Source: Verrucomicrobiota bacterium (GTDB taxonomy: Bacteria; Verrucomicrobiota; Verrucomicrobiia; Opitutales; Seribacteraceae). From it: a DNA stretch of 64,000 nt. The notes beneath the pieces are model-generated. The model did not search any database. It was not told where the DNA came from and was given only the letters and a program-made list of their open reading frames with translations. Location: positions 1 through 64,000 of the forward strand of contig JAQBYT010000018.1 in the NCBI GenBank assembly GCA_027622665.1. Reading direction: 5' to 3'. Positions 14,199 to 54,899 of this stretch are shown here, piece by piece; positions within the stretch are counted from its first letter, which is position 1, and each line of letters opens with the position of its first letter. Made by a program: the position numbers and the translations under genes.

Positions 14199-14212
14199 CA
14201 TGCGGCTGTGGT

Positions 14213-17200
14213 TTAAGGAGTGGTAATACGGAGGCGAAGGAAATTACGACCACCGGAAGGAAGAGGTGCATCGGTTTCGTAGACTATGCGTTCCATTTCA
14301 CCACCTAAATCGACTCTGCGTGGGGACGACTTGAATCCAGAACTAGTCCATGTTCGTAAATCAGTACTTTTTTCGATATGGTATTGGAAATTTTCATCAG
14401 TAGTCTCTAGGGGCGACTTGAATCTAACGATGGAGATAGCTTGATTACTGGTGTTCAACTGGCCACGAAATGGTAAGTCTTTCCAGTTGTCAGGACCAAG
14501 AGAATCCGAACCAATGGCTCGCTCGAATAGATTACTGAAGCCGTCCCCATCGGAATCGCTGTAATCCTCATCGAAAACCTTCTTCGCCTCCACTTCGGAT
14601 AGACCTTCGCGAGCTATTAGTCGTCGTACGAATCGTTCCCTCGTGCCATCGTAACGTACATCTCCTCGCCGAAAGTCAATCCATGCCTTTTGGGTTGGCT
14701 TGACAACTGTCAGCAAACGGGTCGCGGGAGGGGCTGGAACGAACTGGTCATTCCCCGGGGCAGTGATGCTAAGTTCAACAGTTCCAATTCCTACGGGAAC
14801 AACGCGATGTCCGTCCACTACCCTGACACGAGTGGAATTGGAACTGGTTATTTGCAAGGGTATTCCCCCGCTCGAAGAGACCCCTTGAAGAATAAAGGCC
14901 CGATGGTTCATGGGCATATCTCGCACACCACCTTTTTCACCCGTATTTGGAAATCGTATTTCCTGTCTTTGTTTTGTCGTCACTTGGAAGACATGATTTA
15001 CGGGTGTGGCGGCATGCACGTAAGCACTCCCACTTTGATTTGCAGTGATACTTATCTCTCCGGCAATTCCATCAAGAGTTACGACACCAGATGAGTCGAC
15101 TGAAGCATGGCCGTATTCAACTGTGAAAATAACCGGCAGACTGAAAACTGGATGATGTTCGCCGGAAGAAATTGCGCTCGCGATCAATTGGAATGGTGGG
15201 TCGTCCCTAGTCTTTTCTACGACTATGGGCACGAATGTGATATTTTGATCGTCCTTGGTGACTGGTGGAATTACATGCAATTGCAAGCTAACCGGATGAG
15301 CTGGGTCATAACGGTCGTCGCCGACTTGCATGGCGGTGATGGTCGTGGTGCCCGCATCTATAACGGTCACGAGAGTACCGGAAATTACAGCAACATTCGG
15401 ATTCGAAGAGACATAGAATACCGGAAGGCCTGAAGATGCGAAGGCGGTGAGAGGGAATGAAGAATCACCAACGGCCTTCTCCACCAAGGGAGGGAAAGTG
15501 ATCGTTTGAGAACCTCCGAAGGTTGGCGGGGTCGAACGGAATGGATGAATGGAAGAGAGTGAGTCGGTGATTCCCCATTTGTGGGCAAGGTAGCCCTCGA
15601 TCTTTTGACGGTTTACGGAATTTACATCCTGATTATAGATTAGGGCTTCGGCGATTTCGCCAGTAAATCCGTTGCCGACCTTGTCTAATGCTTGTACTTC
15701 CCCATTAACTCCACCTGCCTCAATTACTTCACCATCGATCCACAGGGATTGGCTACCGGGAGTTACCCGCAGAGCATTGACGGACCAACTCGAACTGCTG
15801 ATGTTCGATTTGAGATTTACGCCTGCGGTTTCTCGATGAAGACCAAAATAACCGTAAGCGTCGGTGGTGCTAATATCTCCACCCAGAACTTTAGACGACC
15901 CGATGCCGTTTTGTTTGTGGACTAGGAAAATGACACGAGCTGCCGGAACTTCATTGTCTATGTCAAAGGATTCGCTCTGATCAAATCTCACGACTGCTTT
16001 TTCATTGAGAGTATTGGGCTGCCAGACAGGCATGTTGTTCGAGTTGCCTTGGATGGGATTGTTAGTGTTTCCGGATTTGTCGCCCCAAAGACTGATTTTG
16101 TTGCCCGGAAGGAAGTCGGTAGGCTCGTCGCGATATTGATCACCATTGACGTCGTTGCCGTCGAACCAGAGTTTCAGTCCGGGAGCTGAATCACTGAAAA
16201 GATTACCGTAACCTATGGTAAAGGATTGGGTCACGGAGGTTGCCATTTCATATCGGTTGTCTCCTGTTTGCAATGCAGTGAGAGTCGCGACTCCAGGTCC
16301 ATGTACGCTTGCAGTATTTCCTGCCACCGTGGCAAGTGCCGGGTCGGATGTGGTAAATGACACGGGGAGCCCCGAGCTGGAATATGCGGAAATAGTAAAG
16401 GGGAAGTCGCCGACGGAGTGATCATGAATCGCCTCAAAAGTGATGGTTTGAGGAACTTTCCAGACCGTCATGTAATTGTCCACGGGCAACGCAGATTCAT
16501 AATCATCATTTCCAGCTTGTCGTGCCGTTGTTTTTGTTGTGCCCGCGCCTATGATTTCCACTTTGTTGAAATCTCCTCCAGTCTGCCCATGAATTAGAGC
16601 AATTGTCGAATCTCCGAGTGCAGAGTCATACACACGAAGGTCATCCACCTTCCCGGACATTGAAGCTAAAGCATCTCCGACATACAGAGCTGATAGTCTG
16701 CTTGCTAGGTTGATGCCGCTTATAGCAACCCCAGTAAGTTCGCTTGATTTGTTGCCGTCTGCATATAGAAGAAGGGATCCATTTGCATCCTTACTGTAAA
16801 CTAGTGCAAGGTGAGTCCATTTGTCGTTGGTTAGGATGGGGGTCGAGGAGGATATTTTTACAGTACTGGCATTTCCATCTTGGTGGAAAGTTGCCGTAAC
16901 GAAACCATCCGTGGCATTTTGCTCTATCCGAAAAACTTGCATCGGGACAATATTGTCCTTGGACAGAATTACCGCCCCATCGGTAGAAGTATCTTCAGGT
17001 TTAACCCACAAACTGATGGTGAATTCTTCTTTTAGAGGAACACCACCGAGGTGAACGTATCCGTTTGGCGTTCCCAAGGAAATCGCGTTGTCGAACTTGC
17101 CTTTAGTCCATGCTTTGCCGTTTCCGGTACTAACAAGGTTCACAAGAGTGCCATTGTAATTACCGCGTTCGTCTTTAGCGGAGTTGTAAAGATTTTCATC

Positions 17201-20200
17201 AAACTTCCAATAGGCTATCAGGTTGTCTTGCGCAGTGACTCGAAGTCGGGCGATATTTGTATCTTCTATTTGGTACAGGAGTGGAAGTAGAGTGGCATTC
17301 CCATCTTCATCGAATGAATTTCCGAGTAACTGGAATGGGAGAGAGTCGGCGGCTACATTTGTCAAATTCTGATCAAAGATGAGAATTTGTGACTTCTTGT
17401 CGCTTACGGTAAGCACTCCGCTCAAGTAGGTGAAGAAATAATTGGAGGCATTAACTTCCTCAGGTATGATTTTATAAGCTCCAGCAGGACTGCCGACATT
17501 CGCAATGGTGGTTATATCCACCGGACTTAAGAGTGAACTATTGTTCTCTCCGTTAACGAAACCAGTAAGATCATAGGTGAGGTCTGGATTGGGTTCGCCG
17601 GTTTTACGAAATTGGTTATGTGCCTTGATTACGAGTTCCGCCTTACCTATTTGAATCCGTCGCAAAACATTTTTGGCGGGATACCAGTTTTCATTTCCTG
17701 CTTGTGAAACCCTGATGCCTACCATGCCGGGTCCTTTGATGCTCAAGCGACTCCCATTGAGGTCTACTGCTTGCGAACCGGATACTATTTCAAATGAAAC
17801 CGGCAAGCCTGATGTTGCGGATGCATTTAAATCAATGGGAGGGGCTCCATATCGCAAACCCGCAAGAGTTTGCTGAAATGAAATGCTTTGTCTCCCTCGA
17901 AGCACTTCTAAATTTATGGTTCCCGTGTCTATTCCGGAGGGGTTTCCCACGGTTACTTGAACATTGAAAGAACCAGTAGCTTCGGGTCTTCCGGAAATGA
18001 TCCCAGTGGCGTAGTCAACGGCAAGCCCTTGGGGCAGGTTGGTAGCGTTGAAATCGGTGGGACCTTTTGTGGCCGTGATTTGATAAGAGTAGTCCATTCC
18101 ATATCTAGCAACCAGTGCGGAATCTCGTAGATTGTAAACTGCATCAAGTTCTTCGATGGTAAGAGCTCGGTTGAATACTCTGAAATCGTCGAATACACCA
18201 TCGGTCATTGGAGATTGAGAAGGCATGCCGCCAATATAGAGGCTATTGTCAGTACCTTCCCAATCCAGAATGCCGGAAGTAGGCACTGCTGTGGTAGCCT
18301 CCGCAGCATTGAGGAATAGCCTAAGTTTTGTTCCATCGTAACTGAGGGCATAATGATACCATTCATCCAATGCGAAGGGTGTCCAATCCGTGCTTTTCCA
18401 ACTTCCTTGCGTTAGAGCGGGTCCAATGAACGCTCGACCTCTTACGAAACCGTCAAGAGCTTCTACTCGGAATTGTCCGCTTCTCAAAAGGTGGGCATTC
18501 AAGTCGGAGGTTTTAGCCCAAAAGGTGACGGCGAAAGAAGCTGAAAGTCCGAATGCGGTCTGAGACTCGATAGTGGCTACGTCATTCACCCCATCGAATT
18601 TTACGCCAAGACCTTCCCTGCCAGCTTGTCTAGCTTCCACGGGATCTTCGAAATTGAGAAGCGTACCCGTTTTACCATTGCCCGAGGCATCTGTCAGAAT
18701 CGTGCCGTTGTTCTCATCGAAGCTCCAGTGAGCCAAGGGCATGATGGGCAACTGAATCTTCGGTCGATTGTCGAATGAAGGAGGACCGTCTTGATACGGA
18801 TGCCCTCCGAAATCTCCGTTCCCGCTACCGTACAGTTCGGATACGTCCAAGGTGGTCAGTGCTCGAGAATATATTCGAAGTTCGTCCAGCTTTTCGGTGA
18901 ATCGTTCATCGCCCGCTTCGAAATTTCCTATCACGCCAACATTGTTCTTGGCTACTAGACTACTTTCTCCAACGAGATTTCCGTCGATGTAAAAGACAGT
19001 CTTGGCGTTGTCGACGTCACCCACGGCAACGAGATGATGCCAGCCAGTCGAGAGGGTGTTGGCAGTGAAGCCCGAACCGGTAAAGCCGTTGAGTGTATTA
19101 TATACTCCAAGCTGACGATCCCCTGCTGCGTCAAACACGACATGGCGATCGTTTGAAGTCGCGGCAACCAACGTATGCTGCAGGAGGGTTCCGGTATCTG
19201 TCAGAGGTGCGGTGAACCATGCTGAAACAGTCCAGTTTGATCCCATCGGAACTTCGTTTACCCCCAGCGAAATATTTGAATTACCTCCGGGAACTCGGAT
19301 GCCGGAACCGAACTGGCCGGAAACCTGCAAGTCGGCATCGGCAATGTTAATTAAGGTGCCTTGTCGGTTTTTTGGGGAACTGTCATATACATTGGAACCA
19401 TCCACTTCTTCGAAGTTGAAGTAAAGCTCGAGATCTTGCTTTACCTTGTAAGAATTGCCGACGAGATCATCCGTAACTTCCCATTTGTGGGCAAGGTAAC
19501 CTTCAACCATCTGAACTTCAGCCTCCGGCAAAAAACGATCGAATACGAGGATCTCCGCAATGTCGCCAATGAATTGTCCATAACCTGTGGCAGGATCATT
19601 CCCGACGGACACTCGATCGATGTTTGTAGATTCGTTGTTGTATGAAGCTAAACGCGAGCCAGGTTTGACATCCAGAGTCCAACCCGAGGAACCATCGTCG
19701 GCACCTATTGCCACTCCTCCCCCTTTAGCCACCGCGAACGCATGAACGCCTCCGACTTCAGCACGAAGGGTGCCGACGTTTAAATATTCGCCTGAAGCAA
19801 AACGCACAGCTGGGCGCCCATCAAAGGATGATGTAATGTAAATGGGGCGGAAACCACCCACTGTTTGAGTTGCATTTTGCCCGCTCTTTGACTTGTCCGT
19901 CCACTTGCCGATCGGTTGGTCGGGGAGGATGTTGTCCGATTCTCCGTCCCCATCGATATCATTCGCATCCAGCCAAAACACCAACCCGTCCAAGGTATAC
20001 TTTGTAAGCCGAGAGTCACTCGCGGTGAAGAACTTATGCAAGGGTGACCAATAGCTGCCGCCAATGTTTTCTGCATGAGCTCGGAAGAAGTAACGCTTGT
20101 CGGCTTCGAGATTGCTGAGTTCTGTCGAAACGGGTCCCAGTCCAACGGGTTGTCCTTCGTTGATGACGGCGACCTGATCCCAATTTGCCGAGTTGTTGGC

Positions 20201-50200: not shown

Positions 50201-53200
50201 AGCATTTGTCCTGACCCAAGTATCGCCCGTAAGCAAAAGAGCTTGTCCAAACTTGCCGTTAGTTTCAAATTGGGGAACATTCCCGTTGTTGCCGGCAAAA
50301 GATCCAGTGAAACGGCCGAAGTAATCATAGGTCGCAAGGCTTGTGGCGTTTTCCTCGAATTGCCACCATGCCTGTAAACGATCAGCTCTAGTTACGGGCA
50401 TGCCGAAAATAACGTCAAAGGACTCCGCTAAGCTTTCAACTCCACCCGAGTCTTTGCCTAGACCCGCCTGCAGGCTGACGTTGAGACGACCATTCGGAAT
50501 TGTGGGGGCTATGGTGAACTGCCAATCACTTCCTGCGCCAGTGTAGTTTCCGTCGTTTGCGTTGTTGACGGAAATGCGGCTCTCATTGAAGTCGTCGATG
50601 GGCCAAGTTTGGCCGTATTTGTGGAATTCCAGGGATATGGGGATTGGAGAATCATGGGTTACCGGCGGGAAGGTCGGGGTCACCGTGAGGACGAGGTCGC
50701 CGTAACCGTTCTCATAGGTGGCGGTTATGTCAGAAGGGGAAAGAGCCGAGGCGTGGATGCGCAGGTCGTCGATCATTCCATCGAAGCGACCTTTGGCAGG
50801 TTCTGTCGGATCGGTGATTGCGAGGCGAAGCACGGCGTCTGCATCCACCACGAGTTTACCTCCGAACTGGCTCCATGAACCTCGAGTTACTCCATCGAGG
50901 TAGAGTTCGAGTTCGTCCTCTCTCGTCGTGTCGTAAGTTAGGGTTAAGTAATGCCACTGGTTGTTAGATACGCCCGCGGGTGTTGCTATTTGCTCGGATT
51001 TCAACTCGGTGGAGAGATAGGTTTCCAAGTTGCCAGCCTCTGTACCGATTTCGATGGATGATTCTGTCGAACCCCTAAGGCTAAACATGACGTTGTTTAT
51101 GTTGTTGGCATTCCAAGAAAAGGAGTCAGTTGCTCGTTTGAACCAGAAAGAAACTGAAAAACTATTTGCAGAAGACAAACCCGGGTCAGTTCCTAATTCA
51201 ACATGATCTCCTTCAGCGTCAAACACCACGGAAGAACCGAATTTACCGAATGGCGACCAGTCGCTTCCGCCTTTAAGTTCTCCCGGGATCACTCCCATCG
51301 CATCCGTGATTGCGGTTCCTTTGGCGTCATCGAACCACCACCACCTTATGAGATCTCCATGTTGCCGCACTGGAGGAGTAAGGAGAATGGAAGTGGCGGT
51401 GGGTAGGGAGGGGTCTCCGTTCCCTGTTGCCGCTCCTGCTGCAAGGGTTAAAGAAACTTTCGTTATGCTTGTAGGAGTAAGTTCGAATGAGTATTGGGAT
51501 CCTGACAGGGTTTGGAAGTTTCCGATGGTCGCCCCCGTAACGGAAATATCTCCTTCCGTGAAACCGGCGACTGTTTCAGCTTCGCCGAAACGAGAGAAGT
51601 TCACTGTAACGGGTATGACCCCGAGATTGGTAATTAGGGGGGCATCAAAATTGGCCATCAACCCCATGTCGCCTTCGCCGCCGTTGTAGATGTTTGCAAT
51701 GTCATCCGACGATAGGGCAGCGGAGTAGATCCTGGTGTCATCCAGGGTTCCCTCTGCGAATATGGATGACCCCATTGAGCCGAAATACCAGTCGGTGAGA
51801 GTGTATTCACCAGCTGCGTCCAAGGTGAAACTCTTGGATCCCGCTAGGGTTCCGTCTACAAATAACTTGACGGCGCCTGCTGTGCGATCGACCACGCTAG
51901 CCAGATGGTGCCATTCGCCTATGGAGATTCCAGAGGAGGACTGCGCTAGTTCAACTGAACCATCACTTAGTACGTGATTCGCTCCAATTCGCCCCTGGAC
52001 CTTGTGGAACAGACCTTTGTCGGCAGAGGTTCCTAGTCGTGCAACCAAGGGGTTCGGTGGTTCCTCTGTTCGAAAAAGATCCATGCTATTGGCTGTGGAA
52101 TTGCGAGGTGCAACCCAAGTCGTGCCGCCCGTGGCATCCCATCCGAAACCAGTTGGCGCATTGGCCCGACCCGCGCCACCACCTCCATTGGACATTCGCA
52201 ATTCGAAGTCAAACCAGCCTCCCGAGCCGAAGTTCGTATTGCCGAAAGTGACATTGTTCCATCCGGCATCATTCAACAATTGCTGACCGTTAACGACAAG
52301 GTAAGCCACGTCGTCGATGTCTTCTTGAAAGGCCATTTCGCCGTCGGCATCGAATATTTGGCCACTGTAGACGACCGTCCAATTGTCTTTCCATGGCGGT
52401 TTCGTTTTGGACTCGGACAGGGAGGGGCCAAGCGGATCGATTCCATTGGTGGCTCCCGAGTTCGCTGTATTCGTATCTAAGTTTCCGGGGTTTGCAGCAT
52501 AGCTCATGTTGCCGTTTAGACCGCCTGCCTTAAGTCCTGCAATATAACTGGGATTGGCCGCGGGTTTAAACCAAGTTGAAATCGTGTAGTCTCCTTCTCC
52601 CAAGTCAAGTGGGGAACCTGAAGCTTCACGATAGATAGAGCTAATGTCGAAATTGGTTAGACCGACCGAATAGATGCGAACGTCGTCTATCAGCCCTTGG
52701 AACGTTTCCCCAATACGGACATCGTCGCCAGATGCGGTATTAACTGGCTCACTAGCTGACCAACTTGAACCATCGAAGACACCATCGACGTACAGCTTGA
52801 CTTGATTAACGTCGGTGGAACTTTCCAATAAGACTGCAGCAACGTGGTGCCAGCGATCATCGGTTACGATGGTGTTCCCAACGATTGCACCACCATTGAC
52901 CTCGACTCGTATGGCTCCGGCTTGGCCGTTATTAATCTGAGTGCGGAAGAACCATTTCTGGGCTGCCGTGTCGGTTCCCCAGTGTAAAACTCGACCATCG
53001 GTATCTGTTGTCTTTATCCAAGCGGATAGGGTTCTTGGATTGGAACCGGTTATACCTTTGTAGCCGGTTATCAAGACCCTGTCGTTACCTGCCTCATTAA
53101 AGCTTATACCATTACCTATCCTGCCACTGGTCCAAGAGGCTCCGTTCTGCAAAGTTCCATTATGGTCATTGCCGGATGAGTCCGAGGCTATGGTTCCGGA

Positions 53201-54484
53201 ACCCTCGTCGAATGTCCACCAGGCAGCCAGATCATTGGGACGGGTAATTCGGTCGGGGGGAATTAGCGCGTTAGCCACGGCATAGTCGTCGACCCCGTCA
53301 AGAATCAAGGCTCCTGCGCCAAATTTCACATTTGCACCACTGGCCCATGACGCTCCTCCGAAAATTGTGGCGTTGGCATCGCCCGAGGAATCAGCGGCTA
53401 CCGTTCCGTTGGTCTCGTCGAATGTCCACCAACCCACGAGATCTTCAACTCGAGTAACCTTGAAGTTGTAATTGATTCTGTGAGTGGTTCTGGTCGAATA
53501 ATCTCCATTGGCGTCTTGGGCTACTCCTGTCGGTAAAGTAATAAATATAAACGTTTGATTCCTGTCAGGTATCAATTCGAATTGATATCGAGAGGCATTG
53601 ACGTCGGAAGGGGTGAAATTCTGTACCGATGCTCCTTTTACTTGAATGTCGGTTTCGAGAAAGCCCGAGACGTTGGCATCGTTGCCCGCGTTGTCGCGAA
53701 AGATAATCGAGACAGGAATGGGTTGAGCGTGAGTGGCCAAAGTCGCATTGATCTCCACGCTAGGTCCAAAATCTCCCATGCCGTCCCCATAGGACACTTC
53801 AACCTCGTCCAAAGATAGAGCGACTCCATAGAGGCGGACGTCATCGATAAGACCCTCGAATGTATCGCCGCCGCCCGGAGTTCCCCCGATTCCAAGCTTG
53901 CCGTTATCTTGAGTGACGTTCCTCGCCTCGTCAACTGAACCAACGATTAGCCCGTTAAGATAGGTCTTTAATTTCTTACCATCATATGTCGAAACCAGAT
54001 GATTCCAAGTCCCGTGAGCGATCTGGAATGTACCCGAATTGACGTAATCTGCCTGTAAACGATAGTAGACCTTGATCGAGTCTCCACCTTCATCAAATTG
54101 TACAAAATATGGAGAAAATACATCTTGTCTTTTAGATAGTATCTGAGTCCAGTCCTGTTGTGATCCGGAGCTTTTGAACCAAAGGGCGATAGTATGTTTA
54201 TCTTGAGCCTTCAGATTGTCGTGAGTCCCGACTTCAGCCCAGCCCGAGTTCTCCGTTAGATCCAAGGCGAAACGTGAAATGCCGGATCCCCATTGACCAC
54301 TTCCGTAAATGGTTGCATCCACACCGTTGCCGGTTGCGTCTTGAGCAACCGTGCCGTTACCTTCATCAAAGGTCCAACGAACTAATAGATCATCGTTGCG
54401 GACGACGCCCTCGAGCATCGACACCACATATCCTAACACCATCGTTAGGAACAATATTTTTAGTGGAAACCTCATGCGCGACAT
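14213..54484 (-). CDS. Giant (~13,400 aa) secreted multidomain surface protein/adhesin (LamG, PA14, DUF2341, Ig/FN3-like, Gly-rich, F5/8-like, MBG)
   Basis: One uninterrupted 40-kb ORF with an N-terminal signal peptide. The start is probably an ATG at 54490, 54484 or 54475 rather than the TTG at 54499. It contains many WxFDE...IDD(V/L)R(I/L)Y LamG units, nine WLDA...EGYLAHKW-type units, three DLRF-containing DUF2341-like units, GLPxGL..ISGTP Ig units and YYYR FN3-like units. Confidence 0.95.
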   Translation of the reverse strand: MSRMRFPLKILFLTMVLGYVVSMLEGVVRNDDLLVRWTFDEGNGTVAQDATGNGVDATIYGSGQWGSGISRFALDLTENSGWAEVGTHDNLKAQDKHTIALWFKSSGSQQDWTQILSKRQDVFSPYFVQFDEGGDSIKVYYRLQADYVNSGTFQIAHGTWNHLVSTYDGKKLKTYLNGLIVGSVDEARNVTQDNGKLGIGGTPGGGDTFEGLIDDVRLYGVALSLDEVEVSYGDGMGDFGPSVEINATLATHAQPIPVSIIFRDNAGNDANVSGFLETDIQVKGASVQNFTPSDVNASRYQFELIPDRNQTFIFITLPTGVAQDANGDYSTRTTHRINYNFKVTRVEDLVGWWTFDETNGTVAADSSGDANATIFGGASWASGANVKFGAGALILDGVDDYAVANALIPPDRITRPNDLAAWWTFDEGSGTIASDSSGNDHNGTLQNGASWTSGRIGNGISFNEAGNDRVLITGYKGITGSNPRTLSAWIKTTDTDGRVLHWGTDTAAQKWFFRTQINNGQAGAIRVEVNGGAIVGNTIVTDDRWHHVAAVLLESSTDVNQVKLYVDGVFDGSSWSASEPVNTASGDDVRIGETFQGLIDDVRIYSVGLTNFDISSIYREASGSPLDLGEGDYTISTWFKPAANPSYIAGLKAGGLNGNMSYAANPGNLDTNTANSGATNGIDPLGPSLSESKTKPPWKDNWTVVYSGQIFDADGEMAFQEDIDDVAYLVVNGQQLLNDAGWNNVTFGNTNFGSGGWFDFELRMSNGGGGAGRANAPTGFGWDATGGTTWVAPRNSTANSMDLFRTEEPPNPLVARLGTSADKGLFHKVQGRIGANHVLSDGSVELAQSSSGISIGEWHHLASVVDRTAGAVKLFVDGTLAGSKSFTLDAAGEYTLTDWYFGSMGSSIFAEGTLDDTRIYSAALSSDDIANIYNGGEGDMGLMANFDAPLITNLGVIPVTVNFSRFGEAETVAGFTEGDISVTGATIGNFQTLSGSQYSFELTPTSITKVSLTLAAGAATGNGDPSLPTATSILLTPPVRQHGDLIRWWWFDDAKGTAITDAMGVIPGELKGGSDWSPFGKFGSSVVFDAEGDHVELGTDPGLSSANSFSVSFWFKRATDSFSWNANNINNVMFSLRGSTESSIEIGTEAGNLETYLSTELKSEQIATPAGVSNNQWHYLTLTYDTTREDELELYLDGVTRGSWSQFGGKLVVDADAVLRLAITDPTEPAKGRFDGMIDDLRIHASALSPSDITATYENGYGDLVLTVTPTFPPVTHDSPIPISLEFHKYGQTWPIDDFNESRISVNNANDGNYTGAGSDWQFTIAPTIPNGRLNVSLQAGLGKDSGGVESLAESFDVIFGMPVTRADRLQAWWQFEENATSLATYDYFGRFTGSFAGNNGNVPQFETNGKFGQALLLTGDTWVRTNAYGSALNVGGNKPRTISFWMYVFDGQQTDAGPYGYGSRACGNGKNESFCLRELHQDNYKRIRSQHWCWDPQFNAPTDIRNRWIHVAHIYTGTNVQVYFNGSRLADWARNEIDTGENYPFQFGRWTDETTANRIFLGLMDDFRVYDVAFSQAEIDTIYANGDGDLGIKSTLEVGRVVRDNPFKLGIKFERFGNPIEVTGLALDDLTLAPFTGAAGLLTKLSPGNYELDVQFNVPTDATITLRDSAITDRYGEGSPFASVTTRQMWRSVTSGENLTAWWPFDGDVGNIAQDRSGNENNATLIDAELTAEGRFGQGLRFAPDTIAARMQTNSASGVNIDSNSYTLSAWFNGLYSTTGKNSLFRSNEKPSNLDWDRMILFRGSDRTLCSFDGNDGNENNRYRSSGKTLNPLDYLGWHHVAAVAKGNRTYFFIDGKPVGSSDRQETSDVFLIGNHDSGEAFAEFLDDVRIYSISLSDAEVSGIYGNGFGDLGSTPIITASSPAHTNPISFSVGFGDKGQDSNVTGFSISDIQVINGTASDFNGSGFAYDFNVTTDSGAEEMLVTIPSAAANDESNFSTEGTTHRVLFHTAVYRETDIISRWTFDEANGSSVRDVGIAHNTSFLRGDAHLTTGKFGKALNLDGSGDYAEIPKFRGIYSDGDFTISSWVNLNRAGLTSNADDAGIFCRSGNGNDSVLLWYNVNGTGLANRTFTFNAGNPGTAANRLDGPDNAARVSVWQHVACVMNGNERFLYVDGEQAGFLPVGPTSNTRMEGSSVRIGSWDNSGNFDFNGLIDDVRLYDVAFTDAEVAILHGNGFGDIGVVPLVTIASPTDRSPVSVTLDFKRFGTLESVTNFDLNSTNDLNVTGGTIVNANGSGASYTFDIIPDGQISIITISLPKGAGDVTLNEKTSASTSSFAFRPSLTAEENLVIWYPFENLDDNSTPDISGGPGINATIESSLGQLIGHWTFDETSGSTAANSGITGNTHDATLTSGALFSTTDWKFGGAALHLPTGSTGAHARVTTPLDLGGDVTKATFSLSAWFKKLYPESSGKWRTFTRGSNSHHHFMVQNGAVNAGVYANANGDWRDSGEFDLPAADSASSWHHIVVVSDAITNKTKLYLNGVYKGDSDRATGDNIYAIGNYQAGDQRFAEYLDDFRVYDFVLADSHVTEIHGTGDLDLNRLPTPSPGKFGNSLFLPESGYAKANSDQVSLLNELTLSMWAKIHNDNAGVLARNGQFSLQYEMDNTVRASVYTGGAWRTTRSRSILGEWAHHAMTYDGAEVSLFLNGAKMASTPASGFLEWGDGADHHLYLGYAGSLGANAEIDDFRLYNRALESSEISAIFNNGAGDAGLLPNFAGMTPFGSNPASITTSFVKGSTSHSVTGFATEDLNATNADVLNFTDTGANNAYSLDLNATGDPTMVRLAIPADAVDLNGTGNQPGAAEFHYRIVTAVEDDLLAWYTFDENNGTFVGDSSGRKRHARLSSDVARVAGKFGKAIDLNGDQVSVPFFIDQSSATSTGLTFSAWINPDDVDSGLDGEKTLFATEDTANGWDWGFFIRYRRMSLWTGQSREEIAHRIFVKEWAHVAASFDPILQVATAYHNGEPSVATTFNFTDTANMIRIGSDYNSNRIFDGRIDDVRIFGRPLSTEEIRAIWGGGSGDLAPAPSFIVESPTTADLIPVTLRFNQTVGDFNSSQDLLVTGGTITDFNETTYTFKIAPSSFDSNITIEMAANSVTNAYGRKNESANQQIEYRAHRVGEAHLVAWWKFDDAVGNTAYDSAGGSSNGTMIAADWVVGKFGGALAFGTSDKSMSVDGLPNELKTATISFWVLPRAESELSIINNNQLGGDVDLRSINRRLVLRCSDLDQRGLPITANDEFWSGSVLNLSQWNHVALTYDLLNKRILFYVDGILDAESPFAGTHALALDHQFWVGGNDTNSDNFFQGDLDDLRIYDSVLNETEISGIHGEGFGDFDNQLVTFESKPSLTTPIPVTVRFLQDGFPIEVTGFDQLDLNVPGGNISSFSKQSAGVYNFGITPLNPSVSGTVTLSIPDGTALSDKNVAFPAGSHVVEYRLPLVREEALIAYYKFDDVGGTEASNEIEGGPSAKLENGLIFENAGKFGRALSFSDGDDRLDIEGGLPLPSDWTLAVWFKELFSNTEVRGLFRGSLESHALVPKSGDDLGIFISGSTGFIDSTVDLPSANYLDWHHITVVGTGGKTIFYIDGVKTGFTNGQSNDALKHIGNTNSSSSWDRFARFLDDLRVYRTALTAEEVTAIYGSGVGDSDRTPSIPGGLALTVEKGKPINFKVPVPDASSITATGLPGDLSLDAATGIISGSTDVTGTVNVEVNATNLNGSSIGNLALRMVDFDAYSAKMEIRFPGTTESGLPRDLPGLVLWLDAESVQGVIGDRVTVWGDSSGNENNLDKVRGRPVIAGHESQEGQRVVRFDGYSQLHSTTDFGPMLSEYSVLTVARYLGGDDERIISTIGSNWAFGLGNGNTGHWTAGTTVIDSAAQSDTNWHLHSGTMTSGALATLRRDGYTLATDKTGADPTAYKPALFALGGSNANERFGKGEVAEIMIFDRVLTATEIESMESYLRDKWFGGSTKDFPLLVRLGPGPVAGFDYSTFADQTTAGDLRFFDSSLRELPHELETWDIAGESIAWVKLNDIVPGEIVTAYWGNDSDKVAPAYRADGSTWSNFEGVWHLSQTSADPVVASATGNRNGSRNGGVTSGDSSAIGWGYLFDGLDDSITISGYSGILGSSPRTISAWVKTSGNTGDIAGWGGSGNHWQFGIGSGTLQLAAGTGISNGTTSVNDDEWHHLAVTFPTGSSDSNQSILYFDGKQEPAGNSATGTVSTASVGDVTFGYGVQDPSRFNGKMDEIRISGVERGSRWIRYSAENQKLGSTFVSTLTEYLIAPQLPSELNASVALNIPFIYAIPASPPASEYNATGLPSWASLNVATGEISGTPDATSVFSATVTATNAKGSTTVTLNLISTTTPSTASLSALGTENVEGRSATLLGDMNSTGGDAPGVTVFYGTSDGGATSSAWDANKSLGSINQGLFNAKLTNIDSGETYFFRFQAVNNSGTSWSESLSFTTKRFDQGTIRIHTGDNETGLNSGFYWDKSAGESKILDANSTLTTTYVAPDGSAWPVTVTTFHFPENLYLGTNLSQIILSGKNSLSLQIDGNATIEKSFSGATPLANPVVLGATKIDGHDGYYGDDTTRSNRIGLSVLGGYGGNQGPGRGYKTWLTGGGASHAGEGGQGDRGPGGLSYGSGALDFLLGGSGGGGGNGGESGGGGGAMEIVASGDVTIAAGVTIKMNGGTIFVNPNQGAYRTGGAGSGGGIRIEASNIRNLGILEALGGDAAGQDERETGQRYRQSVGGGGGGGRVAIISDGTIVKGSINVNGGKGMAEGLPGLPGSVYVGSKSQVAGDLIFNSGTLTIDTGGSWSHSSGTKGAGVVTHHSFKDNGGARFGYGICTFSFDSVNLGPGVAVVVRGRNAIQLKVAGNVLINTAISLDGSSGSQGAYSGRAGPGGWNSGRAADNVISNEHLALEGQGPGGGHGFETGRSNGGGSYGGQGTGGLFGGTPGSIYGDDVITYLVGGSGGGHAERGTGNSGGGGGAMGIQSDGNVSIGSNGLLSVNGGNGLYAGDRSGAGGSGGSIRLEAANISNSGTLSAKGGDALIMSSGGAGGAGRIALLTPGNLTQGTLDVTGGEIVRQTIPDVLRSEDLVGHWQFEESSGINTAADSSVNGLEGTITGSPDRVPGMIGNAFRFDGNDDRVVIPNNTAMHLDKYTVSFWVYPEKNNDYWTGLFGRQGRNFNFWFGDGNHATRGFVRHRFHEGTNTSSGPGDTFLSAWNKWFHVVGTNQGLGGIAATYLDGILIQQKTITAALGINTTAPLNIGVNPEDVNSNSSYFLGIIDDVRLYGQALPPEEVYYLYQGDMGLAERAPLTSARQAGSGTATIVQMPSVSNPSFTTATYGQPFSTSTSAGYGVTYEFTGLPPGLDTREPYTPANIPSTLAWYASDDNSSTEIEYGTIGTGMRVSLWEDKSGNGNHATGFGSPSFVSNGLNGMPVIRYSGTDGEYHSWSNMTDIRTVFWVVKRNSGPSFLLGDDNQYHFHSQGSTFFEGNTHTNVSSGVLAINGTTANGTIANIPATMSVISLRTTGNVEASNFSNDRNIAGRYWNGDLAELLIYNTPLTDANISKTEGYLAHKWGLASDLQGGHPYQASAPVSWDPSDLSPSLWLDANDTGYLASKDHYVKTWKDISGNGRDATTTDFSTGPTIIQNQLNGKPLVRFNIGENLTISDPRPMPMTIYIVGKQYNDAGANRELFTYNGWRLAHNGNWSLMRYNNNDPDLNSGKSSGVYSMVGWRVKRYDYAMWVNGESGGGSTSNQWHQNVLFDRINFDSGWELGEIMMVQDKMDENDRLQLEGYLAHKWGLTTSLPSTHPYKTEPPYGPQGPNITGTPNSAGSFPVTVKATNIWGSDTNTFTLTVDPVTPRAVSLAGTEVVSTGARLNGSLHDSGGEPSIASFDWGLSDSVLDRNLTLPGTHSAGSFSGFLTGLQPATTYYYRAKATNGAGSSLGNDVSAMPILHWKLDDLGSSAIDQMGQANGQINGSTSVIDSTRGRVLHFDGNDDFVNLGDIDVMDDIERFTFSVWFKRDSDIAGASPIASSNAINNVLLAQCSSASNDNMEIGTDGTKVEIYIDSGSGTSDGTIEVEAGIQNGQWHHLALTYGSEMTLYVDGAKISTWTQFNGRLESSDKSPLSLGASRPASEKWGDFNGSMSDAQIFPAELSALEIKILAGGTGVQSFTTGTLPAPPVIEVLPVSVVTDTNATLNFQLISYDGPAPNVTVYWGPVERADNEGLWTDSFEMGQLGAGLHAHKVGGYTSGDTVYYRVKAVGATASDWSDKAESFRTVGKPLVVALPATDSTKVSATLHGQVTSNGGEQVTVSLNPPGVSEGLIAHWRFDEGTGVEAGDSTGFNPVADIYGGATWTAGMGGAFGTALDFDGGTLAYIKSPDFRISGIVSFAGWVYKRNLGNWQRIVDFGNNPDSHNLIVANEGTTNSGVWNIRRNNVAMQLTVQDFWTLNEWQHVVATVNAQGVMKLYRDGELKGSYKGHVPNNQQRTKQYIGKSNWNDAYFDGMMDDMRVYDRDLTDQEVATIFAGDLETTLTLGGDAPLVQVFWGDEDAGFNTDVNASDNSKWDNVVNLGIRDLGTIDIPVTGLTGGETYYYRIHAQNVAGEVWSPQATKFNAGSFEFTTNSLPGQELILWLDASDVDGDGNASNEPFGGSLNFWRDKSGQGHHAGNGNGPEIAPGRWNGKTIAKFNGIDQYLRVANSEPFNFGEKATLFLVTKGDTIANWRPIISKRGEDGVGWQFRKPNNDYATFTIRGTTGPDGPYGGTKINDETHVWAARRDGFKRTQWADGNQEYSNDDRGPVPATDDDVVIGARDQDGIGSYAGVEIGEILFFRSDLSDGEVAMVEGYLSHKWGLSEQLSGTHPHKDAPPSFENRPGILNKSEISLLQNNPFSLQTITDRSADSYLASGLPSGLAINPVSGLISGTPTTEGTYGVTILASNAAGSRPSALTLHVKDYTRWEYSAPITIPGYDANDTLTDFPVYIEIDDNINSFSYEQFSSSAGFDLRFVGPDGAEELKYEPVKWNPTGVSSYWVLVPELKAGTTITAKWGNPNATTQPDYCLDGSIWNRYHAVWHMEGDDPTVIRESSGSLHGTAINFKEIPRVPGVIGKALSFDGINDYVNLPLESHPPGDAKQLTISFWAYGGPSLPKDTSILESGSSLGRHLNIHHPWSNGRIYWDAGSGSVDRIEKNDVDYRGKWVHWTFQKESSIGAMYIYKNGEEWMSGYSRTRPFGGPVDNFRIGSARTGGSYWNGWLDEVRISLDLASAASIKAAYSSQIPGANFVSIGTVEGPPTLIPGQVVRGFANDANRSVAYALQTFPSATEFAAAGLPFGLSINISTGEITGNPIQGSSTNITVTASNSKGSDQGIVSLVIVDVNEFTHKTAMTFEGYDGNETLKDFPALIRLGKDIPNFSLRSFQSASGNDLRFYDDNANELAYEIDEWNEASGELLVWVRLVELNSDLNVTAYWGHSLNAVQAPTYAYDGSTWSSGYRGVWHLGEMNSAGVLTDSSITRNHADDHDGLDRPSSVIGTGRTIGGGSDTFISVPYSSSLQLLEGSDYSFSTWIRLEDELPNDIPNAFLARGWDSWIPSNGNEPYFNNIAQGLFANKQFSGQRIWTNEDIHLDNDNEFMNANIGITSNDWYMSCFISTFVVPETGNYGFRMLRKDDRAVMWMDLDQNNKFDGNEKIGGNDDFTKDPVSPNELIAGEEYLVAFAHGEGGGGSRIEPWIKTPSVNWVIINPSDPVQNGWYKVPLDGTVADDLSSMNIYSYGSGKSFYFGSQAKPSLHHTLESSSVTSVSTIPVAKGTWRHLSTVVDVTNGKAKIYLDGNLTGQTDFSPEPAATINPGLSWVIGQGMVESAYDELRLSGVARSDAWIKASYHNQKSSQAFPTYGSVIGPNSINTPLIFTIEADQAFSHDVNATNPPLAFTATGLPSGLILDSSNGLISGTPSRSGEYEAIVTALYPSGQNPSEKHSFSIQPVLPQISINNLTTTTSTTTQVVYEITKSGGEDPEVFLVADILDMKHELYNWSRRLELGNKGLGVYTVTFGDLTPGSTYFLRMMARNSAGEAWTGANSFVRTQPLLSDLPGDAGIWLDATDIDANNLPDGFSVGSTISFWLDKSSYARHMSEVDGDPKVALSILNNKPVIDYDGNDRMYTSYDFRTNNAADWRAGGYTAFGISRYSGGDNERLITSNGGNWLFGHHGNTIGRYHFDGWIDQGTTADTNFHLFEARHQGKNQAADPSCEVWNNGIEGSYANSSKTGSNNDWFMPQRLSFGAMNSVTQESSKGQVAEFIMFHGLLSDEDRLKMEGYLAHKWGTSLPANHPWASEPPSFGESVINGTTQQFTPPKTRIPTVVNRPPSSVTNDSATLNGNLADYGTGIVLGPFTPLAYGGLKLWLDATDLDGNDIADSFSGNSPVSIWTDKSGLENNAIQGGVGKQPLYKPVSINSKASVRFDGTDDFLSFPRMSDIRTVFLAITRNDANNQAFLLGDSIRYDFHSANGRVWSIANASANLYNGSLRVNGNQRDGLITDFPTGEVCVVAVRSIGPVEASNFSNDRDIANRFWNGNLAELLVYSEPLSDEDMLKIEAYLAHKWGTEDNLPSAHNYKSEAPRRVNPAANVKVYWGANDGGTNPSDWDNDVDAGVAVLGLKKMTSGITVIADPIPTESASTYPAQKLLDDQLPADGWRSTWTAWYKTNTTLTFNLGKERILEKIRIYFMPRDRGDELKEVTIHAADEYLNFAPVKTENGKVGTRNVGTWMEIPMDGILTRAIKLEPVFQGWGHIWGEVEFWVRETGDFSIDVEGLSKGQTYYYRVFGSNDGGQDWADDTISFKAENKVFYDSGKLVIDTSNGTWKHDGGDFRMGEISPATFIDSLGNSFNYDVCRFTFDDVKLMGGLEIEVRGNATLEIVSTNGDAFLGATINLSGGSGGKVDRGTATAGGFAGGDLSSRGIGPGGGFEGGGGYGGTGGGATSTSGQPYGKGSLVDLLGGSGGGGLATSTGGGGGGALKVIASKQLIVDASISSRGGNGLLGSGGGSGGAIFLKGNSFSITAKGTIDVSGGSGGGGGGRIYLEGSDHFENQGTDNILLQGGAGAPSGTDGGARFTRPSNLENLEFFTGGIEIDTEMGVLTHSSGEVAFGIIEDNIHIGEDGIAWSYSTCRFPFTNIELGGGVIVTLKGRNALILEATAGKIVIGTNIKADGSAAANEKGGFGRLGGFSGDDTGFGTGRGPGASTQTTAEGHGAAHGGHGSGDARIYGDRALDSLLGGSSGGASATGGSGAGGGALWLKASGEVVIKPNVTISANGGNGEGSAASGSGGAVRLEGSRIFNHGRIEAKPGSGVKVSGNNQNRGSAGGRVAFISSGVAQVGEIDVSGEWLSNEGTIFVSRNYLNSNIVVDSGTVTFDTTTGYFSVENGPHGEGILSTHTYFDSDETIWEYGVCSFTFGQLRITGSAKVVLKGKRALSIQTVGTGEIYIGVDLRLDGGDASAVDGYGGRPVLNPWRGRSSERQTGFGPGGPLPAGNWGTGASFNYGDDQLSQLIPGSSGSSGRYFQGSGAGGGALELKAGGDLTISSGVLLSANGGNGRTDGYQWDHGGGGSGGAIRLVAKNIYNKGLIQAIGGNRAAGGGRIVLASSETIERGVISVGSGSIVEVRPPTVSGPSTVYLGYRGTGTVEMKKKGSTKPENLLGHWHFDNGTANDSSGNEFHGVASASSIFSVNTWDGQGMSVNLGGNHHILVSDGASESTFDGGNSFSVTLWVKGWPNGGFEPYISKRGEEGQGWQLRRRGGSGDQISLTMRGPGNDDWSVTKNINDGNWHHLVGTFGDGKRSIYVDGVLEGQENRNGAVNPTGSALVFGARDNSGVAGAPNIGAHAGVFLDEVRFYNTFLNQSEVDAIFKGDFTKVPVHVQYRITADNSPRSYGVEGILPAGLSIESGTGKILGRPLEVGSFDLNMTATNVAGKGSKPITFIVDPTAPEVAAIAPAEVTATSARLAARVINDGGQPPTLQFFWGDNDGGENLELNATDDIGWDHRIDLNGSFSDGTAGTFLTGLDRNQTYYYRVVAGNSVNPVVWSIPKQSDLAAWWRFDESSGISVLDYVGNSSGTLVGMTSGDRVFGQVGKALRFGGAGEHVTVTGYKGIAGTNARTITAWIKTTNTSGTIASWGENANGALWNFVIKDGKLRLDVKNGSIEGTATVNDGNWHHVALMFPAIGSDVTDAVLYADGSPDPITASSSRAVNTGSKEDLRIGSDSVFNDHFNGIIDEVRLYETDLSSSDLAAIFLNGTMRFKTSNVTVPPVVEVITVNPTSGGTATVTGEILSYDLTKPSVKIYWGDEDAGPTTGIDTGDNLKWDNVENVSAGNALGLGEFNATIAGMTPGKLYYFRAYASSSDGNDWSSGDPSIRNNLAAYWRFDEESGMLALDSTSKNRNVTLINFDSNASRSTGFVNKALLFDGTDDWVDLNLNSDAFFLKDAFEGRSITFRFKAPSQFYIGPAVTRYKNLVGYWALNEGSGTIAADATSAKTEGTVLGSASWGTEKFGGGLIHDGVDDALSIDASLFNEVHKGAYSISLWLKPAVEVDTSTKNAFLVRGFNQSPNNNYYNDINTLIGLAYNGQKVWTSEDLHLDNDNQFINAGIGITQNDQYMFLALSTFVVPEDGDYGFRCTRKDDYATIWLDLDKNNQFDVTDKLGGNNDFTRDPVTLVAGDKHIIAIAHGEGGGGSRIEPWIRTPSLAWTKINPADPNQDGFWILDSASPWGGIVTPTSLHKNIFQRNGEGLSLAPGNVLNMTHLTSTGTVSAVATTLAPSGAWRHVVGVFSPSEDKVRIYVDGNKSGEADIPFGATPLDIPAINYWRLGGGGGGTIFNDYLTGETDDLRIYDIVLSDSEIASIYNAGLSDLNVPQAAFVSQTIYDEGDSTNGLGVKFDSGILSAKINGAGNSLEQTHVIDLADDRWHHAAVTFGDSPKAFKLYVDGAISGSSQLFGSAILPAHADPPAIGKTIGTAVFNGLGNFKGLLDEFRIYDRGLTQEEVTQVYDGDMINTGVVSLHAIELPQIVTTPATDVFPERATLNANVLSTGGVITVIDEIRDLTFNAGTAPGIVGWYSASDMDGDAKDDLGLTYRNGAVVTSWKDSSGFMRDMVSSSGDPTYSMFGLNGKPVVSFDGDDKIWSNDNYDFLTNSGYTIFSIARYTGGDNERVIASRTRNWLFGFHGDRVGRWHPGGWVDQGSAANTLWHMNVGIIDKKSDPKAWFWHDGSQTQSGSNGSNDNDFAPGQLQFGGEGTGAGEMSECEVAEVIIYKGMLSEKNRQGVEAYLAYKWDLVGTILAANHPHKSANPFTGITRVYEVNNEGGDDPVVKIYWGETNGGENLTVDANNSANWDQVAVINEGQPVGLGPVSTELSNLEADKRYFFRAHAENIGGSYWSPLHKFFTASDSRLTKYTLDGLVFWLDANDIDGDGESDNILPDQPIGKWTDKSKSGQNATQTVGGFRPIYITSSFDGRPAVRFASGEYLNVGTLRAEVGGVHAFAVAKGGGVAIGADDGSSGWTLDVKPGSRLASYNNESTNIDRVSVGNDPATGYGQFIGDIAEILVFDRFLPEAEVQMVEGYLAHKWEVTDDLVGNSYKVKQDLELYFNFEEVDGSNVYDSSPKNRQGTLINIADADLQVSGQFGSGIRVPGGNSNISLGVNEVPMGSNWTVSAWFTAPLTDTGTLLQHTLVAATSNDRHVVFDAAGDRQLGVYNTLNGFTGSGFTANTLSTGWHHLVAVGDVDNAKTVFYIDGNLVGESSLVAKNNVGVIGNFEAGDERFTEKLDELRIYSRALTTLDVSELYGSGNGDFGGHPYQDGPPSFDNRPKIQLPIMPLAHWSFDENNGTILTDASGNGKTGTLLNFEDPVEARQAGREGLGVKFDGVNDVATIESQTAFGLSASFAVTFWAKTSDLNAHLLRSGQFRVEALDGFVRGRAFIGPALTQGSWKSTDWTPFALDEWYHYALSYDGTKLRLFLNAAEATTAVPTSGILDWEGTDNSLYIGGMPSQSPMTDGVFDDFRVFNRALTIEELDAVYNLRDSALVARYGMDYSYQITATKGPTDFNATNLPQGLAVDYATGIISGRPEATGSFNVQVTVGNPSGIDTGTINLEVLRGRQSISFQQTLAGLRYGAPPIDLNASATSGLPVSFEIVSGSQAVDLNGSRLSIKGPGMVGIRVSQAGNENWYPAKNVLRRIQIGKAELVIKAHNQFRKTGEPNPDLTYDLTGFVNGENNSSLLSPVDITTIANVGSPAGAYKIIPEEVNASNYFFTYLSGVLTVSDKKSQILIFDQNLTNVAADSLPFQLLGNSFDEDGNATLLPLLYQIEDTNIARLRVTAQDNLIAYWKFDENLYNSAKDERGNYNGTLVNLVSTGNGKAWTKGKFDNAISLGTPNGYVHLGGVPLKEEFTISLWVKPEDTSTDGAVILSKDNIVPMQVFRIEQNATDGFVTATFHQDGNASTVKISSSTPILTNDKWTHLALVYSKDANGSLLLYADGNKSSELTGVAISGINLASRLSALYVGDALASMSGKVDDLRVYDSALGDSTIALIHGQTGGDFNKVEIIGAGTTKTTARQAGNDDYESALPVDNYMTVWKVPQTITFEAIHDHSVGDFPFTISAYSSSGLPVSFTTSDPALATVAGNTASVHGPGVATLTALQTGDNRYEMATSVTQSFTIGYGNLFSDSAPGLKLWFDGNDVNGDQYRDEPTDFLPGNKISLWGDKSGNTNNPIQGNSNNMPVWQPNTLNEKAVVRFDQSESFDIDNEVPAARVIFLVHKQNGIGSSKVLGGDISTTDAYGYFGLHRETAGVNLKSNISSSSWSVNALRVTPGSQSLWIDGEVIEAGGVNGEVQALDKVGNGFTGEIAEALIYNQDVNSVNRQKIEGYLAHKWGITDSLSSIHPFRSTPPTFGGSQTITFPPLVEKAVGDSSFPLTAFASSGLPVFYVSSNPNVAVISGTLVTVIDAGTTTITAMQVGDDRYDPAHPVSLQLHVIPPVTKDDQNITFVPIVVEKTRDDPPFQLIASAISSGEHHPVFSLPVIFTVEYGHASVDSSGVVTLDGIAGEISITANQSGSAYVHAATPVNHVFQVTTKQRQEIRFPNTGEKGGVRDMPMNHRAFILQGVSSSGGIPLQITSSNSTRVRVVDGHRVVPVGIGTVELSITAPGNDQFVPAPPATRLLTVVKPTQKAWIDFRRGDVRYDGTRERFVRRLIAREGLSEVEAKKVFDEDYSDSDGDGFSNLFERAIGSDSLGPDNWKDLPFRGQLNTSNQAISIVRFKSPLETTDENFQYHIEKSTDLRTWTSSGFKSSPRRVDLGGEMERIVYETDAPLPSGGRNFLRLRITTP

Positions 54485-54899
54485 AAACATAGCATGCAAT
54501 TGGCTTTAATTCAAAGGATTCTTCAAGCGTTCATCAAGGTAAATCGTATTTCTTTTCCGAGGAGAAATAATAGCGATTCGAGGAAGTCTATGCATGACTT
54601 TATTTATTTCGTAAGACTCTCTCGATCAGTATTTTGTGAATTCAATTAAATTTCTTTTGTGATTTCCCTGGTTCCTATTGGCAAGTTGTCCCGAAGGATT
54701 GTTTATTCATTGAAATTTGAATGCTAATGAACGGCTTTTCAATATGAGTTCGTTCGTTTTTTCCGTTTTTTCACTTTGGGTAAGGTTTTAACCTATATTT
54801 GTATATTAGCGGAAAACTTGCTTTTACTGCGCTTCCGAGAGAAACACTTCTCTTTTTTCCTGCAAGTGACTATGCTAAAACGATTAATGATTTTGAGGA

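Follow-up and report, generated by a model that had tools for sequence, protein, structure and literature searches.

The 64,000-nucleotide stretch analysed here (positions 1 to 64,000 of contig JAQBYT010000018.1, assembly GCA_027622665.1, from a Verrucomicrobiota bacterium of the order Opitutales; hereafter 'the window') carries a gene for a giant laminin G (LamG) and immunoglobulin (Ig)-like repeat protein that is rich in D/E-x-N-x-S/T, the acceptor consensus of the Campylobacter oligosaccharyltransferase (OST) PglB. Below we relate this motif, which we call the extended sequon, to a PglB homolog encoded elsewhere in the same genome; the features concerned are collected in Table 1. The ATG at 54484, from which the gene had been counted in an earlier sequence-only reading of the window, lies five codons inside the longer, TTG-started frame. 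With the protein cut in three pieces, Pfam finds 14 + 5 + 7 = 26 Laminin_G_3 (PF13385) stretches over cut-off (E 2e-239 to 4e-94), together with Big_12, He_PIG, MBG_2, F5_F8_type_C and DUF2341 domains; a Toxin_R_bind_N match overlaps LamG and reflects the shared lectin-like fold, nothing more. This combination of 26 Laminin_G_3 and Ig-like domains is the build of giant LamG/Ig-repeat proteins of Verrucomicrobia and other bacteria, and several further proteins of 4,000-8,800 amino acids (aa) in the same genome are built similarly. The signal-peptide-like N-terminus, called by a hydrophobicity heuristic rather than a trained predictor, would place the giant protein where PglB acts, on the periplasmic or outer side.

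Extended sequons (counted as [DE][^P]N[^P][ST]) occur 71 times in the giant protein against 16.0 +/- 3.8 expected from 300 whole-protein shuffles (z=14.3), such that 42.5% of all NxS/T sites (71/167) have D/E at -2, while NxS/T as a whole is only mildly raised (167 against 139.8 expected). The sequence-only reading had tallied roughly 70 by hand, about half of the NxS/T sites, and had remarked that acidic residues are a much smaller share of the protein than of the -2 positions; both statements hold, D (7.21%) and E (4.16%) together making up 11.4% of residues. Either acidic residue contributes (D 54 against 10.2 expected, E 17 against 5.8), and the excess is confined to D/E at -2. Control motifs stay at 0.6-1.3x of the shuffle expectation overall, whether the Asn is exchanged (DE-x-Q-x-ST, observed 7, expected 6.0; DE-x-D-x-ST, 13 and 16.8), the S/T is exchanged (DE-x-N-x-AG, 13 and 18.4), the D/E is moved (to -1, 11 and 16.0; to -3, 21 and 16.3; to -4, 10 and 15.8; to +1, 15 and 16.3; to +3, 10 and 16.1), the motif is reversed (15 and 15.6) or K/R is placed at -2 (9 and 9.1). 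Recent duplication does not explain the count, because grouping the 71 sites by the similarity of their flanks gives 60 groups (the largest with five sites, at LamG domain starts), shuffles inside 20-, 50- or 200-residue windows give an expectation of 14.5-14.8 extended sequons (maximum 33), and Tandem Repeats Finder found no DNA tandem repeats in the giant gene, which rules out inflation of the count by repeats.

The bias extends across the exported proteome. Among 3,376 open reading frames (ORFs), called crudely by keeping the longest ORFs that do not overlap (90 aa or more) and sorted by simple hydrophobicity rules, D/E stands at -2 of NxS/T at 25.3% of sites in the signal-peptide-like class (871 proteins, the giant left out), 27.8% in the membrane class (701 proteins) and 50.1% in contig-edge fragments (42 proteins), as against 12.5% in the cytoplasmic class (1,761 proteins). 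The exported rate is twice the cytoplasmic one, and the background at Asn outside NxS/T is 10.4-12.2% in every class. In the position profile of exported proteins the enrichment at -2 is 3.44x for D and 1.63x for E, and no other position peaks comparably; in cytoplasmic proteins D at -2 reaches 1.19x. This excess is independent of the giant proteins, since it holds in proteins of at most 1000 aa (332/1563 sites in the signal-peptide-like against 286/2372 in the cytoplasmic class, odds ratio 1.97, p=2e-14) and in those of at most 600 aa (20.2% against 11.1%). Extended sequons of exported proteins more often have Thr at +2 (58%, against 43% of other NxS/T, p=2e-19) and are 2.8x enriched in Ala at +1. 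In its five residues the acceptor consensus of the proteome matches that of Campylobacter PglB, with preferences like those of DQNAT, the optimum used in the glycosylation assays of PMC4894442. Counted on these crude ORF calls, the exported and membrane proteins with one or more extended sequons number 384.

Searched by protein family, the assembly as a whole (66 contigs, 4.52 Mb, 93.5% complete) yielded a single STT3 match, a predicted PglB homolog of 1,086 aa. The sequence-only reading had proposed a PglB/STT3-type system while noting that the window holds no pglB; the gene indeed lies on a separate contig (C43), and it has the WWDxG motif, as WWDYG. The homolog scores 71.9-74.5 bits against PF02516 (STT3; cut-off 24.5) and 74.7-79.8 bits against PF21436 (STT3-PglB_core; cut-off 23), its best NCBIfam family is ProtGlycPglB (196.6 bits, with the archaeal STT3 family at 16.5), and phmmer matches it to the C. 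lari PglB structures 6gxc, 5ogl and 3rce at E ~5e-43. The HMMER alignment pairs D123, R218 and D225/D227 with C. lari D56, R147 and D154/D156, WWDYG at residues 630-634, the motif that serves in binding the +2 Ser/Thr, with C. lari WWDYG, and I743-M-R-I746 with the MxxI motif, I746 standing opposite C. lari I572. A TIxE motif at 448-451 (E451) lies inside a stretch left unaligned by HMMER, and R463 sits 12 residues past E451, the same spacing as from E319 to R331 in C. lari. The roles in C. lari PglB of the acidic residues for catalysis and metal binding (D56, D154/D156 and E319), of R147, and of WWD and MxxI are set out in PMC7226087, in which the Ile of MxxI contacts the +2 residue, and R331 is described as salt-bridged to the -2 Asp (PMC4894442, PMC7226087). 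In an alignment of 26 homologs D123, R218, D225, D227, E451 and W631 are invariant, and R463, W630 and D632 nearly so. Features in common between the homolog and PglB of Campylobacter (C. jejuni, C. lari) are WWDYG, the catalytic Asp, the DxD, the Glu of TIxE, the MxxI Ile and a conserved Arg 12 past the Glu. Like the Campylobacter enzyme, it would be a single-subunit STT3-family OST of the same fold, bacterial PglB giving its best NCBIfam and PDB matches.

Structure prediction points the same way. With the AlphaFold model (mean predicted local distance difference test score 82.6, predicted template-modelling score 0.80), Foldseek lists 6gxc, 5ogl and 3rce first (E 1e-29 to 5e-28, template-modelling score (target) 0.71-0.72) and human STT3 and archaeal AglB next (E ~1e-10); the modelled fold is nearer to solved PglB than to archaeal AglB or eukaryotic STT3. 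In contrast to C. lari PglB, to which it is ~23% identical, the homolog is much longer (the PDB chains have 713-724 aa), with insertions between membrane helices (residues 359-384 and 424-435, modelled at low confidence) and a beta-rich, confidently modelled C-terminal extension of ~190 residues, for which Pfam, scanned at E up to 1, yielded nothing beyond a chance-level match. A LysM domain is precomputed for one homolog (P0076) and is absent from the PglB homolog of this genome. We regard the protein as belonging to a known enzyme family, of which it is a divergent long form; for its phylum, the literature searched held no description of it.

The gene is widespread in the family of this bacterium. 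With the PglB protein as query, 22 of the 24 other family genomes gave a match, the two without one being G002 (51% complete) and G016 (91% complete), and there was no match in 16 other families of the order, each represented by one genome. The Pfam STT3 model, run on 251 genomes of the order, scored 12 of 13 family members at 63-79 bits and ten genomes of other families only weakly (18.5-35.7 bits), and the PglB-core model, run on 401 genomes of the phylum, matched just three, this one and two that belong to a different family, f76 (27-30 bits). One family match, in G024, has three in-frame stops (a TGA, a TAG and a TAA), perhaps because it is a pseudogene or was misassembled.

Genomes with this gene show the bias, and those without it do not. 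We ran 286-400 kb sampled from each of five comparison genomes through the same pipeline. In the three genomes of the same order without a PglB match, D/E stands at -2 of 51/656 exported (7.8%) and 45/507 cytoplasmic (8.9%) NxS/T sites when pooled (G035, 13/180 and 18/195; G033, 15/166 and 20/165; G025, 23/310 and 7/147), as against 112/474 (23.6%) and 74/434 (17.1%) in two PglB-bearing genomes from two other genera (G020, 54/202 and 19/166; G019, 58/272 and 55/268).

We consider it highly probable that this marine member of the Opitutales has a general PglB-type system for en bloc N-glycosylation of D/E-x-N-x-S/T in exported proteins. What was computed, namely an enzyme gene with its catalytic motifs and fold, a motif excess at -2 only, its limitation to exported proteins and to gene-bearing genomes, and its preferential conservation (described below), supports the PglB/STT3-type system of the sequence-only reading, as does a candidate PglK-like flippase. 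A lipid-linked oligosaccharide would be built in the cytoplasm and flipped by the PglK-like ABC transporter, and the long-form, single-subunit PglB homolog would then transfer the glycan en bloc to Asn of exported proteins, among which the giant LamG/Ig-repeat protein would be one of several hundred likely substrates, with ~70 candidate sites. Within this scheme we infer, rather than compute, the attachment of glycan, the occupancy of sites, the structure of the glycan and the identity of the donor cluster.

Several points weigh against a PglB-type system of this kind. Its basis is sequence statistics; the export classes come from hydrophobicity rules, not trained predictors, and misclassification occurs; the comparison genomes entered as samples; and, because these genomes are related, the contrast between them amounts to one gain or loss event, not many independent ones. 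The cytoplasmic rate of G019 (20.5%) is contrary to expectation, although 25 of its 55 'cytoplasmic' sites belong to one 2,888-aa protein with a hydrophobic N-terminus missed by the rule, and the rate without the top three proteins is 24/199 (12.1%). The weak STT3-PglB_core matches in family f76 (G393:C165, L052, and G322:C81, L053) are ORFs of 705-719 aa that carry TIxE and DxD motifs; a motif scan found no WWDYG-type motif in them, and there is no D/E bias at -2 in the exported proteins of G393 (25/287, 8.7%), which as an independent replicate neither supports nor refutes the PglB reading. Unlike in Campylobacter, the homolog is far under the equivalog cut-off of ProtGlycPglB (NF050801; 196.6 against 1300 bits), and is a distant subfamily, no equivalog of Campylobacter PglB. 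The proposed equivalence of R463 to C. lari R331 follows from motif spacing and conservation, without a residue-level structural alignment, and Ollis et al. (PMC4894442) report that the Arg alone is insufficient to fix the -2 rule. Again unlike in Campylobacter, pglB stands outside any pgl-type glycan locus, its neighbours on C43 including no glycan assembly genes and no pglK. In this 66-contig assembly it is also on a different contig from the window, but its presence in 22 of 24 other family genomes argues against a binning error. Lastly, residues 8001-10000 of the giant protein hold 16 NxS/T sites, none with D/E at -2.

This last observation also bears on a narrower alternative, that the PglB system is real and the giant protein is little or not glycosylated, for example because folded sites are inaccessible to a post-translocational OST, the count reflecting lineage-wide drift or few functional sites. 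Bacterial PglB favours flexible, exposed sites, and the density of the giant protein (5.3 extended sequons per 1000 aa) is well under the 17-53 per 1000 aa of the array proteins discussed below, in addition to its 2,000-residue stretch without an extended sequon. Conservation, however, argues the other way. Full-length orthologs without stops occur in two same-genus genomes (13,499 aa, 80% identical, G005; 13,257 aa, 62% identical, G007) and have similar counts, with extended sequons at 74/172 and 62/160 of NxS/T sites, respectively. In an alignment of the three proteins, scored for retention of the sites of this genome, extended sequons are kept at 60/71 in G005 and 42/71 in G007, as against 54/96 and 23/96 for other NxS/T and 39/61 and 17/61 for control triplets (DE-x-[DSGQ]-x-ST). 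D/E and N are both kept at 60/71 and 43/71 positions where S/T stands at +2, and at 35/70 and 14/70 where it does not, a pattern that indicates that the three key positions are conserved together; the retention of 42/71, against 23/96 and 17/61, at 62% identity implies selection on most extended sequons. We therefore think it unlikely that the giant protein escapes the system, and its glycosylation, and the density thereof, would follow from these sites and their retention. It is not special among the candidate substrates and is not the densest of them.

Very improbable, in our view, is that the excess of D/E-x-N-x-S/T reflects a structural or metal-binding role of the motif in beta-rich extracellular repeats (LamG turns, cadherin-like strands, Ca-binding loops) without any glycosylation. 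Such a role would account for the five of 71 sites that lie in a 'W-x-F-D-E-x-N-G-T/S' LamG start and for other small groups that recur, for the recurrent '[DE]xNA[ST]D' of cadherin-like proteins, and for the Asp-rich DGNFTDPG octapeptide described below, which resembles Ca-binding repeats. Yet both Asn at 0 and S/T at +2 are needed, given the control counts for DE-x-D-x-ST and DE-x-N-x-AG, and Ca loops interchange D and N whereas DE-x-D-x-ST is not enriched; moreover, the excess spans many unrelated folds and small proteins, in exported classes only, and exported proteins of PglB-lacking genomes stand at 7.8%. LamG-bearing ORFs in five genomes without a PglB match have D/E at -2 of 16/161 NxS/T sites (9.9%, against 42.5% in the giant protein), from which it follows that the fold does not demand the motif and that, in genomes without a PglB match, the motif is no property of LamG folds. 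Many LamG starts in this genome itself lack the Asn (DEGSGT, DESSGI and similar), making Asn optional for the LamG fold. The LamG start motif gave three loose matches in the PglB-lacking samples, too few for use, and a query with residues 1-1,200 of the giant protein gave no match at 1e-10 in five genomes without a PglB match. Finally, it is hardly credible that another enzyme (a cytoplasmic N-glycosyltransferase (NGT)/HMW1C-type enzyme or an O-OST) does the glycosylating and the PglB homolog has a different role, for although the genome is rich in glycan genes with which pglB is not clustered (nine full-length DegT aminotransferases and three Bac_transf enzymes genome-wide), what is enriched is the five-residue consensus of PglB, with its acidic -2 and preference for Thr at +2, where NGT enzymes use plain NxS/T, the bias tracks the PglB gene, and the densest sequon array is encoded beside pglB.

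That array belongs to the FG-GAP repeat protein directly downstream of pglB, in which E-x-N-G-S/T stands in six successive FG-GAP repeat units and whose tail carries at least 35 extended sequons at intervals of no more than 12 residues, for the most part as DGNFTDPG octapeptides, and reaches the contig end. A contig-edge ORF on C57 opens with 12 more extended sequons and may be the continuation of this protein. The signal-peptide protein on C42 has runs of 14, 7 and 5 sequons with a 7-residue period, 'V/P-D-x-N-G/A-T'. Low-complexity arrays of this sort would be hard to interpret except as glycan attachment modules. Engineered multi-sequon glycosylation tags exist in bacterial glycoengineering, and the natural DGNFTDPG and 7-residue arrays resemble their design, in which short D-x-N-x-T units follow one another head to tail in a flexible linker; they differ in being natural and much longer, and in that one of them is encoded beside an OST gene. 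Single DQNAT tags were the acceptors in the assays of Ollis et al. (PMC4894442). Separately, 'DLN[RAKQG]T' recurs every 17-22 residues in proteins on C11 and C22, the latter with RCC1-like repeats in which each blade has 'DGNTT' and 'DANVS'; the cytoplasmic class given to this C22 protein is probably a misclassification by the heuristic.

Table 1. Positions of the genes and protein features discussed, in the window and on other contigs (C) of this genome, and of one pglB match in another genome of the family (G024). Fractions give extended sequons among all NxS/T sites.
Feature	Position	Strand	Description
Giant ORF	window 14213..54499	minus	13,428 aa, single uninterrupted frame, TTG start
Signal-peptide-like N-terminus of giant protein	window 54395..54499	minus	~35 residues, basic then hydrophobic stretch
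Stretch without extended sequons, residues 8001-10000 of giant protein	window 24500..30499	minus	glycine-rich, 16% G; the most negative GC skew in the window (24-28 kb) falls here
Two sulfatase genes flanking giant gene	window 9538-11148 and 12816-14201	minus	
Glycosyltransferase cluster	window 58407-62335	plus	FkbM-type methyltransferase, one GT2, two GT4
Tyrosine recombinase	window 7640-8599	plus	Phage_integrase and its SAM-like N-terminal domain
Predicted PglB homolog	C43:2660-5920	minus	1,086 aa
FG-GAP repeat protein, directly downstream of pglB	C43:1-2435 (L002:3-2435)	minus	811 aa; 43/45
Coiled-coil protein upstream of pglB	L002:5979-7700 (C43)	minus	573 aa, one membrane helix
Protein upstream of pglB	L002:7690-9984 (C43)	minus	764 aa, six predicted helices
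Contig-edge ORF	C57:21098-22582	minus	
Signal-peptide protein	C42:25801-30714	plus	1,638 aa; 56/69
Sequon-rich protein	C12:42319-48522		2,067 aa; 52/61
Sequon-rich protein	C3:2-12661		4,219 aa; 80/118
Protein with 'DLN[RAKQG]T' repeats	C11:1-1741	minus	
RCC1-like repeat protein	C22:127563-130100	minus	
Glycan gene cluster	C13:16000-55000		PglC-, PglF-, PglE- (DegT) and PglK-like genes together
pglB match with in-frame stops	G024:C8:132832-135957	minus	

A candidate donor pathway is found on contig C13, where types of gene known from the Campylobacter pgl system occur in one cluster. It includes a PglC-like phosphoglycosyltransferase of 227 aa; three adjoining genes for a PglF-like dehydratase, a GNAT acetyltransferase and a DegT aminotransferase; and several GT4 glycosyltransferases, a WecA-like transferase, a UDP-GlcNAc 2-epimerase, a heparinase II/III-like gene, three consecutive S-adenosylmethionine-dependent methyltransferases and two AsnB-like amidotransferases. 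A search for a flippase found the PglK-like candidate here, an ABC half-transporter whose alignment with C. jejuni PglK covers it from end to end (E 1e-76). It is plausible, on gene content, that these genes form the lipid-linked donor pathway for PglB, though such gene types also serve other glycans.

Upstream of pglB, the 573-aa and 764-aa genes overlap by 11 bases, and the gene order by pglB is kept in G020, of another genus (L040), and in locus L009. No Pfam or NCBIfam family was found for the 764-aa protein, and in the protein atlas it falls only into unnamed Verrucomicrobiota clusters, one of which has 1,479 members, so that it is not specific to PglB-bearing genomes; the 573-aa protein gave only weak coiled-coil-type matches in Pfam and NCBIfam. 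These two neighbours might be accessory factors or unrelated genes. Metatranscriptome contigs from four marine/seawater runs of four studies match pieces of 36-281 nt of pglB and of the beginning of the gene downstream of it, in most cases at 95-99% likeness, which does not imply transcription and leaves the uncovered parts uninformative. Within the window, the sulfatase genes beside the giant gene are fitting for a sulfated-polysaccharide-degrading lifestyle. The glycosyltransferase cluster ~4 kb off the giant gene has a lower GC content (0.40-0.47), and its position does not imply a connection to an N-glycan.

Going by the literature searched, work on N-glycosylation of the PglB type has dealt with Campylobacter and its relatives, along with a few Desulfovibrio and Aquificae enzymes (PMC4894442). 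The homologs of C. jejuni PglB (CjPglB) listed by Ollis et al. (2015; PMC4894442) in their account of its distribution are mostly from epsilonproteobacteria, with few from deltaproteobacteria and aquificae, and Verrucomicrobia are not on that list. Like the homolog described here, those of Desulfovibrio, other deltaproteobacteria and Aquificae are found outside Campylobacter, at 15-20% identity to CjPglB, and as they stand in that list the PglB family is scattered among bacterial phyla. Several of the Desulfovibrio enzymes have a relaxed or non-acidic preference at -2 (PMC4894442), whereas the proteome signature here argues for a strict acidic one. Also in contrast to the Campylobacterota, the host belongs to a free-living marine Verrucomicrobiota family, and among its candidate substrates are tandem sequon arrays as well as giant adhesin-like proteins. 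The author of the sequence-only reading was aware of no such system in Opitutales, and we likewise found no report of a PglB or oligosaccharyltransferase system in Opitutales or Verrucomicrobia in the literature searched, which lay mostly outside subscription journals; the wording on PglB and Verrucomicrobia in PMC4973528 is unrelated to such a system. Public databases put automatic labels on relatives, such as 'STT3 domain-containing protein' or 'undecaprenyl-diphosphooligosaccharide--protein glycosyltransferase'.

A bolder proposal, which we put forward tentatively and rate at slightly short of an even chance, is that this Opitutales family gained a long-form PglB and with it has a very large N-glycoproteome, in which megadalton adhesin-like proteins would carry ~70 selected sites each and poly-sequon stalks (7-8-residue period, at least 35 units) would form mucin-like N-glycan brushes, while the C-terminal domain and two operon partners of PglB could adapt the enzyme to such arrays. 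If true, this would be, going by the literature searched, the first natural N-glycosylation of such scale in free-living bacteria beyond the proteobacterial and Aquificae lineages. A family-wide PglB-type system in these bacteria would widen the phylogenetic and ecological range of the pathway to abundant marine Verrucomicrobia, and would be a case of a glycoproteome readable from sequence statistics alone. For glycoengineering, it would offer a divergent, strict-sequon PglB together with natural poly-sequon carrier modules. The PglB reading predicts specific peptides and arrays in marine metaproteomes and, if it is true, would account in part for the surface chemistry of marine bacteria that degrade polysaccharides, giant surface proteins included.

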